Positions 12,417 to 17,072 of a stretch of 64,000 nt of DNA are shown in pieces (positions within the stretch are counted from its first letter, which is position 1; each line of letters opens with the position of its first letter). The notes under the pieces are model-generated. The model ran no database searches. It was not told the origin of the DNA and saw nothing but the letters and a program-made list of their open reading frames with translations. This stretch comes from Negativicutes bacterium (GTDB taxonomy: Bacteria; Bacillota; Negativicutes; UBA1444). The stretch covers positions 1 through 64,000 of the forward strand of contig CAXXIN010000004.1 of assembly GCA_963665275.2 (NCBI GenBank). The letters run 5' to 3'. The translations under genes and the position numbers were made by a program.

Positions 12417-12491
12417 TGGTGACCCGTGGGGGAATCGAACCCCCGATACCGCCGTGAAAGGGCGGTGTCTTAACCGCTTGACCAACGGGCC
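12417..12491 (-). tRNA. tRNA-Glu (TTC)
   Basis: GGCCCGTTGGTCAAGCGGTTAAGACACCGCCCT-TTC-ACGGCGG...GTTCGATTC...CCA; cloverleaf with encoded CCA. Confidence 0.97.
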
Positions 12492-12499
12492 ATATGAAT

Positions 12500-12574
12500 T
12501 GGTGGGCCCACCTGGGATCGAACCAGGGACCAGCCGGTTATGAGCCGGCGGCTCTACCGCTGAGCTATAGGCCC
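12500..12574 (-). tRNA. tRNA with CAT anticodon, most likely tRNA-Ile2 (lysidine-modified)
   Basis: GGGCCTATAGCTCAG...GCCGGCT-CAT-AACCGGC...GGGCCCACCA; paired 1:72 and no GGG/CCC anticodon stem, so not fMet; acceptor stem resembles Ile2. Confidence 0.9.
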
Positions 12575-12623
12575 CAGAGACACAAAGCAGGTTTTCCGAA
12601 GAAAGCCTGCAGATTTTGAAAAT

Positions 12624-12698
12624 TGGCTCCTCGAGTAGGACTCGAACCTACAACCCCGCGGTTAACAGCCGCGTGCTCTACCATTGAGCTATCGAGGA
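12624..12698 (-). tRNA. tRNA-Asn (GTT)
   Basis: TCCTCGATAGCTCAATGGTAGAGCACGCGGCT-GTT-AACCGCG...GTTCGAGTC...GAGGAGCCA. Confidence 0.97.
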
Positions 12699-12716
12699 AT
12701 GTCGTCAACGTTGTTT

Positions 12717-12746
12717 ATTATAATGCAAGCAATATGGCACCGTCAA
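12717..12746 (-). promoter_or_regulatory. SigA promoter of the tRNA operon
   Basis: TTGACG-N18-TATAAT immediately upstream of tRNA-Asn. Confidence 0.8.
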
Positions 12747-12785
12747 GGGCTTTTGCAAAATTCTTTGCATGTTTTTCTATTGGCC

Positions 12786-14567
12786 CTATTCCAGGAAATC
12801 CTTCAACTTTTTACTTCGACTTGGATGACGCAATTTCCGAAGCGCTTTGGCTTCAATCTGTCGGATACGCTCTCGCGTCACCTGAAAGAAATGGCCAACT
12901 TCTTCTAGTGTACGGGCTCTTCCATCATCTAACCCAAAACGCAGTCGCAGCACTTTTTTTTCTCGTGGCGTCAACGTTTCCAGGACTTCCTCCAATTGCT
13001 CCTTGAGAACCATGAAAGAAGCGGCATCGGCTGGAGCCTGTGCGTCGGCATCTTCAATAAAGTCTCCCAGGTGAGAATCTTCTTCTTCGCCGATTGGTGT
13101 TTCCAACGAAACCGGCTCCTGTGCAATTTTCATGATCTCACGTACCCGTTCAACCGTGATATCCATCATTTTGGCAATTTCGTCAGGAGCTGGTTCACGG
13201 CCGAGTTCCTGCAGCAATTGGCGTGATACGCGGATAAGCTTGTTAATAGTCTCAACCATATGCACGGGGATACGAATGGTCCGTGCCTGATCCGCAATCG
13301 CGCGCGTGATGGCCTGGCGAATCCACCACGTAGCATAAGTGCTGAATTTATAGCCTTTTGTATAATCAAATTTTTCAACAGCCTTAATCAGCCCGAGATT
13401 CCCCTCTTGAATCAAATCCAAAAATAACATACCGCGCCCAACATAACGTTTCGCGATGCTGACCACCAGCCGTAAATTCGCTTCGGACAGGCTTCGTTTC
13501 GCACGATCTCCAAGCTCCATCTCCATTTTGGCCGTAGCATTGATCCGCCGAAGTGCTTCAACAATCTCAGGCGATGGTTCTGGAATTCCCTGTAGCAAAA
13601 AGTGGGCCAGTGAAAGGTTACCGCCATCGATCAGAACGATGTTTGCCGTCTCTAGTCCCTGCATAAGCTTAGTGATGTGGCTTCCCTCAGAAACGCGAAC
13701 TGTAGGCGGATCCGTTGGACGCAATGCCTGATTTAGCTGTTCGGTCGTAACGGTATCTGATTGAAGTCGCCCCAAGTCAACCAAAACCCTGACAACTTCG
13801 GCGTTTTCCGCAGACACCGGGATCTCAAGCCGAGGAACTCCAACTGTCACTGGCGGCTCAAAATAGCCGGGCAAGGAATCCCCTTCGATGGTATCAATCC
13901 CTTCTGAATTCAAATGATTTTGCAGGGATCGTGCTTCTTCACGGGTCAGCTCCGATATCGCCGCCTGATAGAGCCCCGTGGAAATCTTTTTTCCATGTGT
14001 GGCGGCAATATCGCAAAGAGTTTTAAATGTTTCACTTGTCTGACGAACACGCGCAATGTATTCTTCAGGCGCTAAAAGCTGCAATGCCAACTCCAGGCGA
14101 TTCCCAATCGACATAGCGCCAACTTGCGTATGCAACTCTTCGGAGGTAATTTGATCCAGCAGTCGCTGTGCTTCATTTCCTTTATCCATCCGCCGGGCAA
14201 GTTTGGTTTCATCAACAGCAGACAACAAAGAAACACGACCGATTTCCTTCAAATACATCCTTACAGGATCGTCAATACTGACCCCTTCAGGAATCGATTG
14301 CTCGAGGTCCACCTCTTCTACAACAGGCTCCGCTTCACTCGAAATCGCCCCGTCTATTGCATCGGGATCTGGAAGTTCATCGACAATCTCTATGCTCTTT
14401 TTCGCCAACAGCTCAAAGACATCTTCGATGTCTTCTGGTGACACATCCACCGTCTGGAACGCGTCCAAGACCTCCGCGCTCGCAATCATGCTGTTTGCCT
14501 GCGATGCTTTTTTTGCCAACTCATCGACACGATCTGCAATGAGTTTCTTTTTGTCGATCATTACCAA
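12786..14567 (-). CDS. rpoD: Primary RNA polymerase sigma factor RpoD/SigA with a large insertion between regions 1.2 and 2.1
   Basis: [92 protein letters not shown]; follows dnaG. Confidence 0.97.
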
Positions 14568-14602: not shown

Positions 14603-16393
14603 TTACCCCTGCGATTTGGTTAAATCGCTAATTTTTGTAAGTATTCGCTGTGCATTCGTTAATTCCTGCACGTATTGCAAATCTCCTTTGCGCAACATTT
14701 CGTCCGCCTGCATCCGATGGGCTTCATATTGCTCGTTTAGCCGCGCCAGCAACATGATTCGTATGCAGTCGTCCAAAGCTTGCGAAACATCCGGGCCGCT
14801 CTCTCCATTCAACATCAGCCGTGATAATAGCTTCACCGCCGATTCCTCAAGAATTTGCACCAAATTTTCTGCTCGTGGCACCTTTCCGCTGGCATAACTT
14901 TGCCAAATTGCTTCTGCCAGATTGCGACGCGGCCCGCTCTGAAAAAGTTCCGGCGTCAGGGATTTTTTAATGTCCGCGAAGCGGTCCGGTTGCTCCAAAG
15001 TCTGTCGCAATACATACTCTTCCGCGACAATCTCCTTAGAATCAGCACTGCGCCTCACATGAACAATTGTCGGCCGGCCGGCTTCCTTTTGCCCGCGCTC
15101 CCGCTTCAATTCACTGCGAATCGAATTTTCATCAATTCCCAATTTTTCCGCCAGTCGGGCAATATGGGCATCGACCTCCACTGCGCTACCTGACATCGCC
15201 AGATACGGAACCGCACGGTTAATCACAGAAACCTTTCCCGCGAGATCCGAGTAGTCGGATTCGCCCAGAACACGGCTCATTTGAAAATCAAGCAGTCCTG
15301 TAGCAGCCGTGATGCGATTCCTCACAGCTTCAGCACCATGCTTGCGGACAAACTCGTCAGGATCTTTGCCATCGGGGAAAGAGGCAACCTTCACGACCGC
15401 ACCGCTCGACCGTACGATAGACAAGGCGCGCATAGTAGCATTCTGGCCTGCCGCATCGCTGTCGTAGGCAAAAATGATCTCTGGCGCATAATGAAGCAAG
15501 AGACGTGACTGCTCGGGAGTAAAGGCGGTTCCCAGCGAAGCTACAACGTTAGGTACTCCGTTGGTTGCTAGGGCGATCGCATCCATGTAACCTTCGACGA
15601 CGACAGCATGCCCCGCTTCCTTAATGGCACGATACGCGCGTGGAATGTTGTATAACACTGTGCGCTTGTTGAACAAGATCGTTTCCGGGCTGTTGAGATA
15701 TTTGGGCTGCGAGGTATCCATGACCCGTCCACCAAAACCGATTACCCGTTCCCGAATATCCTCGATGGGAAACATGATTCGGTTGCGAAATCGATCATAC
15801 ACACCCTCTTGTGAACGCGGAACCGCAAGACCAGCTTTGACTAGGGTATCAGATGCAACGCCTCGTTTCTGCAATGCTGTGGAAAGCATATTCCAGGCTT
15901 CGGGTGCGAAGCCCAGTTTCAAATCCTTTATCACCTCAACCGTCAGGCCGCGTTCCTCAAGATAAGACAAGGCCGCAGCGCCCAGAGGCGACTTGATCAG
16001 ATACGCATGAAAAAAGTCCCGGGCCAACATATTGGCACGCAGAAGTTCTTCGCGCTCTCTTTCTCGCAATTTTTCAGCTTCCGTACGTTCTTTTTCCGGC
16101 ACCGGTATATTCAATTTTTGAGCCAGCAGTTTCACGGCGTCGCCAAAACCGATATTTTCCACCCGCATCAGAAATCGAAAAACATCTCCACCCGCCTGAC
16201 AACCGAAACAATAAAAAAAACCTTTATCGGGCGCCACTGAAAAAGACGGAGTCTTTTCTTGGTGGAACGGACAACAACCCCAGTAATTTCGCCCTTTTTT
16301 GTTCAATGGGACATACTCGGATACGATCGAAACGATATCAGCCTGAGCCCGCAACTTGTCAATAAAATCGTCGGAGGCGGAATAATTTATCAT
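14603..16393 (-). CDS. dnaG: DNA primase
   Basis: CPFHQEKTPSF..CFGC zinc finger, DRFRNRIMFPI, KYLNSPET, TOPRIM VVEGYMD, YDSDAAG, KDPDE. Confidence 0.97.
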   Translation of the reverse strand: MINYSASDDFIDKLRAQADIVSIVSEYVPLNKKGRNYWGCCPFHQEKTPSFSVAPDKGFFYCFGCQAGGDVFRFLMRVENIGFGDAVKLLAQKLNIPVPEKERTEAEKLREREREELLRANMLARDFFHAYLIKSPLGAAALSYLEERGLTVEVIKDLKLGFAPEAWNMLSTALQKRGVASDTLVKAGLAVPRSQEGVYDRFRNRIMFPIEDIRERVIGFGGRVMDTSQPKYLNSPETILFNKRTVLYNIPRAYRAIKEAGHAVVVEGYMDAIALATNGVPNVVASLGTAFTPEQSRLLLHYAPEIIFAYDSDAAGQNATMRALSIVRSSGAVVKVASFPDGKDPDEFVRKHGAEAVRNRITAATGLLDFQMSRVLGESDYSDLAGKVSVINRAVPYLAMSGSAVEVDAHIARLAEKLGIDENSIRSELKRERGQKEAGRPTIVHVRRSADSKEIVAEEYVLRQTLEQPDRFADIKKSLTPELFQSGPRRNLAEAIWQSYASGKVPRAENLVQILEESAVKLLSRLMLNGESGPDVSQALDDCIRIMLLARLNEQYEAHRMQADEMLRKGDLQYVQELTNAQRILTKISDLTKSQG

Positions 16394-16580: not shown

Positions 16581-17072
16581 ATGAAAAAATTTTGTTTATC
16601 CATTTTGATGGCAATATTATTGATGTCGTTTGCTTCCACCAGTTTCGCCGCCGTAAACAACAAGTATTTTCGCGCCGACAAGCAATACTATGATGTTGAG
16701 ACCGGGCAATATGTTATCAGCGGCAACATCATGATTAATGTGGAAAACGGCTTTATTGCCGGAGATAAAGCTCAAGTCAAACTCTCAACTTTGGAATTCT
16801 GGGGAACCGGCGGATGGTTGTTAAAACAATATGACGTAACTTTCAAGGGAGAATCGGCTTACGTAGTGTTTGGCAAAGATGTTGCCTTAATCGAGGGTGG
16901 CGCCGATTTTCAGCGATCCGATCTGCAGATCACTTCGGACAAAGTAGACTACAACTGGAAAACCAAAATTGCTATATTCAAAGGAAATGTGAAAGTAATC
17001 CAACCCGGACTGATACCCGTTGGATACGATCTGGTCAAATATAATGTAGAGACGAAGGACTTTATCAACTGA
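16581..17072 (+). CDS. Exported LptA/OstA-like beta-jellyroll protein
   Basis: Sec signal peptide; repeated ADKQYYD..GNI and ITSDKVDYNWKTKIAIFKGNVKV patterns typical of the OstA fold. Confidence 0.7.
   Translation: MKKFCLSILMAILLMSFASTSFAAVNNKYFRADKQYYDVETGQYVISGNIMINVENGFIAGDKAQVKLSTLEFWGTGGWLLKQYDVTFKGESAYVVFGKDVALIEGGADFQRSDLQITSDKVDYNWKTKIAIFKGNVKVIQPGLIPVGYDLVKYNVETKDFIN

Follow-up and report, generated by a model that had tools for sequence, protein, structure and literature searches.

Most of the known primary sigma factors with an insert between regions 1.2 and 2.1 are proteobacterial, and the origin of these inserts is obscure and their function partly understood; the SigA of Bacillota is the textbook sigma factor without such an insert. 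We describe here the rpoD (sigA) gene found in a 64,000-nucleotide stretch of a Negativicutes genome (contig CAXXIN010000004.1 of GenBank assembly GCA_963665275.2, positions 1 to 64,000; hereafter the window), whose product carries 223 residues inserted at that junction. Among the closest described systems is the non-conserved region of Escherichia coli sigma-70 (Sigma70_ner, PF04546), likewise a lineage-specific insert of similar size, located at exactly the same site of the primary sigma factor; by analogy, the same exposed position on sigma domain 2 and a comparable role in initiation would be expected for the insert described here. Unlike the E. coli region, with which it shows no sequence relationship, this insert is predicted to consist of two region-1.1-like modules on a helical hairpin, and it occurs in Bacillota, where SigA normally has none. 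Another useful comparison is with region 1.1 itself (PF03979; Bacillus subtilis structure 5MWW), which is N-terminal and has a flexible acidic tether, whereas the modules are internal and far less negatively charged.

The reading we prefer, with a probability of roughly 0.6, is that this gene encodes a housekeeping sigma factor with a lineage-specific insert, that the two modules are diverged copies of region 1.1, and that the insert constitutes a surface accessory domain. We infer the duplication and the function, alongside the observed position, conservation, predicted fold and profile similarity of the insert.

The insert is conserved and under purifying selection

The rpoD open reading frame (12786..14567, minus strand) encodes 593 residues when read from the TTG at 14567, and its product matches five Pfam families above their cut-offs (PF03979, PF00140, PF04542, PF04539 and PF04545), as expected of a group 1 sigma factor. 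An earlier description of the window made from the letters alone (the sequence-only reading) had proposed a 593-residue primary sigma factor with an insert of about 223 residues at aa 131-353; the open reading frame, the Pfam layout and the coordinates all agree with it, and the flanks that it quoted are found at aa 124-130 (ARRMDKG) and aa 354-368 (the start motif of region 2.1). All homologues begin at the ATG at 14561 (MIDKKK...), two codons past the TTG, so the true length of RpoD is probably 591 residues. The five sigma regions, the adjoining dnaG gene and the presence of a single match to RpoD at E <= 1e-90 in this genome identify the protein as the housekeeping sigma factor; the only other RpoD-like match among those listed for the genome is 32% identical. 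The product of 12786..14567 is the sole group 1 sigma factor found in the genome, whose completeness (92.6%) leaves room for a second copy.

Short RpoDs of the class (L017, L041) have the motif RMEAGD joined straight to EEAKRRLAEANLRLV, and the spacing between the region 1.2 and region 2.1 motifs, 38 residues in the standard short form, is 256 residues in the protein analysed here and in its family. Most short RpoDs of the class share 91-93% identity with this RpoD from about aa 350 to the C-terminal end. A word-indexed database search using aa 125-360 as the query retrieved 67 proteins, 63 of them 589-595 residues long (the other four have 336-446 residues); every named record among them comes from a metagenome-assembled genome and has the label Negativicutes, Veillonellaceae or Sporomusaceae bacterium. 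Within the order of this genome, the insert was present in 12 of the 13 genomes sampled, all belonging to one family, and the thirteenth (87% complete) lacks any rpoD match. Among 26 aligned long RpoDs, the insert is nearly constant in length and 45-92% identical, and regions 2-4 are nearly invariant. For the insert, Nei-Gojobori dN/dS was 0.25, 0.06 and 0.075 for the three pairs of closest sequences and ranged from 0.10 to 0.22 across four pairs at greater distance, compared with approximately 0 in regions 2-4 (five pairs with computable dS): the insert evolves faster than the core, yet its ratio stays well below 1, a clear sign of purifying selection.

Nothing was found in favour of the insert being an artefact or a selfish element (assembly chimera, intein, transposon remnant). 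The insert is in frame and of equal length in nearly all its homologues, which lie on many contigs; it is shared by almost the entire order and selectively constrained; its G+C content (0.49-0.52) is the same as that of its flanks; and no intein or transposase family appears among its Pfam matches. For practical purposes, conservation, dN/dS, base composition and Pfam content refute such an origin.

Two modules of the insert resemble region 1.1

The similarity to region 1.1 was analysed by hhalign, using a profile of 58 non-identical genuine region-1.1 segments of Negativicutes RpoDs. This profile aligned to module 1 (aa 177-227) with a probability of 79.9% (P 1.4e-5, 51 columns) and to module 2 (aa 255-313) with a probability of 74.9% (P 2.6e-5, 56 columns); the four modules, a to d, of the related insert of the Acetonema type, described below, gave P values of 4.4e-6, 5.7e-6, 1.4e-4 and 3.9e-4. 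All six alignments are full-length, with the elements in the same order. The controls were flat: reversed modules gave P values of at least 0.55 for modules 1 and 2 and at least 0.29 across the six modules, and all eight other RpoD segments compared (including region 1.2, the base helices and the linker of the insert, and regions 2a, 2b, 3 and 4) gave at least 0.097.

Hidden Markov models (HMMs) point in the same direction. The region-1.1 HMM (58 sequences) scored at least 10 bits on 43 of 76 non-identical inserts, with a maximum of 53.4 bits for the whole Acetonema-type insert, and on none of the 76 reversed inserts (maximum 2.5) or 380 shuffled ones (maximum 5.9). In the opposite direction, the module 2 HMM recognised region-1.1 sequences of three other families along the full length of the model (19.2, 15.6 and 12.5 bits among the 58 sequences; maximum of 4.1 bits for reversed sequences and 3.6 for 580 shuffled ones). 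When the module 2 profile was run against the six-frame translations of 141 genomes of the class, the best match outside the family was in genome G042 (15.7 bits), in a stretch that Pfam assigns to Sigma70_r1_1 (E 6e-15); the second and third outside-family matches were inside the rpoD of the Acetonema-type family, and the other 22 rows (E >= 0.096) were scattered among unrelated frames. The two segments in which the sequence-only reading had seen by eye the helical pattern of region 1.1 correspond to aa 181-228 and 259-314, within the coordinates given for them, and their resemblance to region 1.1 was borne out by the hhalign values and, for the second, by the G042 match. A common origin of the modules and region 1.1 is therefore likely, because six modules from two families agree and several kinds of control are flat.

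The predicted fold repeats one order of elements

The AlphaFold2 model of the insert, built on an alignment of 11 sequences (pLDDT 85.4, pTM 0.77; elements assigned by DSSP), is one compact unit: a helical hairpin base carrying the two modules. One half of the base is the long helix aa 154-174 and the other half is the long helix aa 333-352, which continues into region 2.1; matches of the insert model to TPR-like hairpins cover model residues 19-44 and 203-223. The order of elements in module 1 (H47-60/E64-66/H67-73/H79-91/E95-97 in model numbering) recurs in module 2 as H125-138/E142-144/H145-152/H166-177/E181-183.

Module 2 has about six additional residues between its second and third helices. 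The additional residues belong to the loop aa 283-295, where about six residues align to a gap in region 1.1 and so lack a counterpart there, as an extension within a conserved loop. Six alignment columns of this loop are invariant (P154, P157, T159, R161, E164 and G165), and the model residues containing it (151-170) have a pLDDT of 66-68. The loop is a candidate interaction site.

Related inserts in other Negativicutes

The survey of RpoD covered 141 genomes of the class, 133 of them with an rpoD match, and was based on stop-to-stop open frames. Most families have RpoD frames of 370-397 residues; the length of about 370 residues that the sequence-only reading had given for Firmicute SigA thus holds for most of the class, and the survey found some Negativicutes families with longer proteins. 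The spacing between regions 1.2 and 2.1, besides the two values given above, is 50 residues in one family, 144 and 163 residues in two families whose inserts have no detectable similarity to this one, 196-199 residues at 8 loci of family f17 and 370-372 residues at 3 loci of family f26.

Family f17 (Phascolarctobacterium and relatives, according to source names) has long RpoD frames in all 19 sampled genomes, and its insert type is found in 435 database proteins at E <= 0.001. The RpoD of Phascolarctobacterium and related Acidaminococcaceae (about 535-554 residues) has approximately 160 extra residues at the same site, with a single module, the orthologue of module 1; module 2 is absent, and in some members a lysine/alanine-rich tail is added at the N-terminus. 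Family f26 includes Acetonema longum DSM 6540, whose RpoD of 701 residues has a homologous insert at the same site, with about 335 extra residues and four modules. Module c of this type is the orthologue of module 1, and module d together with the next helix is the counterpart of module 2: the helix following module 2 (NLSLAHFLL) pairs with YLSLAHHLL in the Acetonema type. The additional N-terminal modules, a and b, are those closest to region 1.1. Module 1 matches module c with P 3.6e-11, the single f17 module with P 5.4e-10 and the single module of family f21 with 22.7 bits (genome scan). When the insert profile was run as an HMM exhaustively against 1.84 billion representative proteins, seven matches were retrieved, five of them from the same family or its fragments; of the other two, P0073 is of the Acetonema type and P0074, a TPR repeat protein, is spurious. 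No relatives of the insert outside RpoD were found among those proteins with this profile.

The sequence-only reading had considered the insert to have evolved independently. This stands with respect to the proteobacterial family (see below), but the insert is not the invention of this lineage alone, since module 1 has orthologues in three other families. The simplest reading of this unrooted series is that an insert with one module had a single origin within part of the Negativicutes and was later enlarged by further modules in two lineages. Module 1 would be older than module 2, the latter being an apparent addition with a counterpart only in the Acetonema type.

Inserts in the non-conserved region are a known kind of element; for inserts composed of region-1.1-like repeats, present in Bacillota with one, two or four modules, no description was found. 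A full-text literature search yielded no description of the Negativicutes RpoD insert or of a duplicated region 1.1 (subscription journals and older comparative work on transcription are mostly outside its coverage), in line with the sequence-only reading, to which the architecture was unfamiliar among described sigma factors.

Other observations concern RpoD elsewhere in the class. At the same 1.2/2.1 junction, loci L040 (genome G112) and L042 (G075), from two further families, carry about 106 and 125 inserted residues with no detectable similarity to the modules (the region-1.1 HMM scores them at -0.5 and 0.1 bits); insertions seem to recur at this junction within the class. Genome G006, of the same genus as the genome analysed here, has both a long RpoD (L002, contig C633) and a standard short one (L017, C260:1400-3100; 388-residue frame), whose region 1.1 is 51% identical to that of the window. 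The contig that holds L017 is 5 kb long and belongs to a bin of 710 contigs with 3% contamination; the short copy thus probably comes from another Negativicute, by way of a stray contig, and is not a second primary sigma factor. Many Negativicutes RpoDs (L015, L016, L031-L035, L040, L041, L044) have long N-terminal tails before region 1.1, which occur independently of the 1.2/2.1 insert; most are lysine/alanine/proline-rich, and that of L031 is a repetitive glutamate/glutamine/proline-rich tail of about 200 residues. Four genomes (G075 and G137 of family f28, G082 and G130 of family f13) each have a pair of RpoD-like matches on one contig, separated by about 1-2 kb (frames of 644 and 403 residues in one case), which may be tandem primary-like sigma genes.

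Origin of the modules

Several results weigh against descent of the modules from region 1.1. The Pfam model Sigma70_r1_1 had no match at E <= 10 in the insert or in either segment alone, and it was equally silent on the Acetonema-type insert and on two inserts of the one-module kind; the hmmscan check that the sequence-only reading had proposed thus came out negative. Other Pfam matches at E <= 10 over the insert were noise (SAPI, NuDC, NIR_SIR_ferr), as they were in the Acetonema-type and the two one-module inserts. The Negativicutes region-1.1 HMM gave the window's own insert no more than 3.8 bits (E 0.3), so the signal comes from family profiles and relatives. The module 1 HMM is weak against genuine region 1.1 (best 8.9 bits, shuffled maximum 6.5). 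A narrow one-family profile, used in the first hhalign round, gave P 5.7e-4 for module 1 and P 0.13 for module 2, whose signal emerged with the 58-sequence profile; the hhalign probabilities of 75-80% fall short of 95%. Most of the 76 inserts and 58 region-1.1 sequences are from one family, and the counts are therefore not independent. At an E-value of 0.014 per genome, about two chance matches as good as the one in G042 are to be expected among 129 genomes, and it is the location of this match alone that is informative. Against PDB sequences, the module 2 profile retrieved an Lsm protein (E 0.1) and a designed repeat protein (E 0.77), and no sigma factor. In the structural comparison, the order of elements was the same in both modules; Foldseek found nothing in the PDB at E <= 0.001 with the insert model (best E 0.1, ferritins and STAT5), and module 2 modelled alone (83 residues, 11 sequences) reached a pLDDT of 55.2 and a pTM of 0.30, so it offers no fold match of its own. 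Concerning membership of PF03979, the modules show whole-domain profile-profile similarity to genuine region 1.1, have no Pfam match to the family and, being internal and mildly acidic, are not strongly acidic, tethered N-terminal domains; as they lack the Pfam match, we call them region-1.1-like and not Sigma70_r1_1 members.

Alternatively, the modules would be ordinary small domains of three helices and two strands (winged-helix-like), their likeness to region 1.1 reflecting a recurring fold or amphipathic pattern and not descent. Such an explanation agrees with the silence of the Pfam model, with the near failure of the HMM on the window's own sequence and with the ESM Atlas search of aa 250-330, where scores of 0.81-0.83 are below the meaningful level of 0.9 and are leads only (among the seven matches listed, three are dominated by Sigma70_r1_2 and two list Sigma70_r1_1, in 77% and 33% of members). 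It accounts poorly for the full-length alignment of six modules from two families to region 1.1 (P 4e-6 to 4e-4), for the 53.4 bits of the Acetonema-type insert, for a genome-wide module 2 scan whose best outside-family match is a genuine region 1.1, and for the flatness of every control (P >= 0.068), including the structurally similar HARE-HTH domain of the RNA polymerase delta subunit; we consider it unlikely, while giving it more weight than any other rival. Capture of the modules from delta (HARE-HTH, PF05066), or from another helix-turn-helix protein, draws on the B. subtilis sigma-1.1 structure, which a review (PMC10141391) reports to resemble the delta domain, and on delta-like genes, which 11 of the family's 12 other genomes possess. 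A HARE-HTH profile of 18 Negativicutes sequences nevertheless gave P 0.38 against module 1 and 0.19 against module 2, at least 0.075 against all seven modules and at least 0.068 with region 1.1 included, and HARE-HTH was not among the Pfam matches of the insert at E <= 10, which makes capture very improbable. Just as improbable is that the insert is a diverged member of the proteobacterial Sigma70_ner family: the site between regions 1.2 and 2.1 is the same and the sizes are similar (223 residues, 210 positions in the Pfam model), but Sigma70_ner had no match in RpoD at E <= 10, none across the genome at E <= 0.01 (a control search found it in E. coli and Caulobacter), and is absent from the precomputed Pfam domains of all 67 insert homologues. 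The sequence-only reading had also set the insert apart from the standard proteobacterial region, and this is upheld.

The delta-like HARE-HTH genes in the other genomes of the family rule out the insert as a replacement of the delta subunit. No delta-like HARE-HTH gene was found at E <= 0.001 in the genome analysed here (92.6% complete; this may be a gap or a weak match), nor in the one-module families f17 and f21 (one genome each).

Charge and proposed function of the insert

In established holoenzyme structures, sigma domain 2 has the insertion point (between regions 1.2 and 2.1) on its outer face, well away from the channel. The net charge is -3 over 53 residues in module 1, -4 over 62 in module 2 and -14 over the 223 residues of the whole insert, compared with -9 over 56 in the region 1.1 core (aa 10-65), which is followed by an acidic linker (aa 66-99) with a net charge of -11; both the genuine region 1.1 and its linker are kept in this RpoD. 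The outer-face site, the rigid packing in the model and the modules having a third to half of the acidic charge of region 1.1 speak for an accessory domain at the surface rather than a DNA mimic that moves.

In the mechanism we propose, region 1.1 would have been duplicated internally, giving rise to two copies that diverged, and two long helices would prolong the helices of regions 1.2 and 2.1 to form the hairpin base on which both modules are seated. By analogy with the E. coli non-conserved region, the insert would act as a solvent-exposed accessory domain beside the beta-prime clamp, where it might tune open-complex formation or promoter escape, or dock a lineage-specific partner. It would stay out of the DNA channel and would not be a second DNA mimic. 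The specificity for the -10 and -35 promoter elements would remain unchanged; no change is expected, as the DNA-recognising regions are 91-93% identical to those of most short RpoDs.

A bolder proposal is that the modules work as region 1.1 does. Serial duplication would then have produced one, two or four modules directed to RNA polymerase or to the DNA channel, with autoinhibition, open-complex formation or sigma release depending on their number; we regard this as rather improbable. If it were true, lineage-specific non-conserved regions of sigma factors could arise by recycling the factor's own N-terminal domain. Its strictest version, in which the modules are mobile acidic DNA mimics or gatekeepers binding RNA polymerase, and their number (1, 2 or 4) sets the degree of autoinhibition, is more doubtful still. 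Homology of the modules to region 1.1, the acidity of the whole insert, its purifying selection and the control of sigma release from core by region 1.1, an influence described in PMC12478191, would all suit it. The modules themselves, however, have less than half of the net charge of the real region 1.1, the model is compact (pTM 0.77), with both modules packed on the hairpin base and no flexible acidic tether, the anchoring point in established holoenzyme structures is remote from the channel, and the genuine region 1.1 with its acidic linker is still in place.

With diverged copies of region 1.1 in a surface accessory domain as the preferred reading, the Negativicutes, Bacillota with an outer membrane, offer a graded series of inserts with one, two or four modules. 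A building block traceable to the factor's own region 1.1 would provide a concrete evolutionary route for lineage-specific RNA polymerase inserts, and the series is a natural one in which to ask how a region-1.1 fold behaves once moved to the outer face of sigma. Acetonema longum and Phascolarctobacterium are carriers available in culture, which makes the question testable.

Gene layout and neighbourhood

The features of the locus are collected in Table 1. Beyond the three tRNA genes, downstream of rpoD, are trmK and a NIF3-family gene; further upstream than dnaG are a kinase/pyrophosphorylase gene and a gene encoding a CBS-HTH regulator. The dnaG-rpoD pair is a usual gene arrangement, and the neighbourhood is the same as that around sigA in B. 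subtilis.

Table 1 Coordinates of rpoD, of the regions and modelled elements of its product, and of the adjoining genes in the window.
Feature	Position	Strand	Notes
tRNA-Asn, tRNA-Met, tRNA-Glu	12417..12698	-	directly downstream of rpoD; ARAGORN
rpoD/sigA coding sequence	12786..14567	-	all five sigma Pfam regions
Region 4 (aa 528-581)	12825..12986	-	Pfam PF04545, E 3.6e-23
Region 3 (aa 439-515)	13023..13253	-	Pfam PF04539, E 6.9e-31
Region 2 (aa 362-430)	13278..13484	-	Pfam PF04542, E 3.3e-24
Insert, 223 aa (aa 131-353)	13509..14177	-	between regions 1.2 and 2.1; without Pfam family
Insert C-terminal helices (aa 317-325; long, 333-352)	13512..13619	-	DSSP on model
Module 2 (aa 255-313)	13629..13805	-	same element order as module 1, sigma-1.1-like; helix 255-268, strand 272-274, helix 275-282, helix 296-307, strand 311-313
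Module 2 loop (aa 283-295)	13683..13721	-	6 invariant residues
Linker, 27 residues (aa 228-254)	13806..13886	-	without helix or strand; pLDDT about 80-84
Module 1 (aa 177-227)	13887..14039	-	helix-strand-helix-helix-strand, sigma-1.1-like; helix 177-190, strand 194-196, helix 197-203, helix 209-221, strand 225-227
Insert N-terminal helices (aa 132-141; long, 154-174)	14046..14174	-	DSSP on model
Region 1.2 (aa 100-133)	14169..14270	-	Pfam PF00140, E 2e-13
Region 1.1, genuine (aa 12-85)	14313..14534	-	Pfam PF03979, E 7.3e-9
dnaG primase	14603..16393	-	directly upstream of rpoD; Pfam Zn_ribbon_DnaG, DNAG_N, Toprim_2, DnaB_bind

Two further open reading frames were observed on the plus strand. 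The one at 12623..13006 (127 residues) overlaps tRNA-Asn (12624-12698) and, on the opposite strand, the 3' end of rpoD, and most likely is not a gene. The other, at 16581..17072, between dnaG and the kinase/pyrophosphorylase gene, encodes 163 residues with an apparent N-terminal signal peptide.

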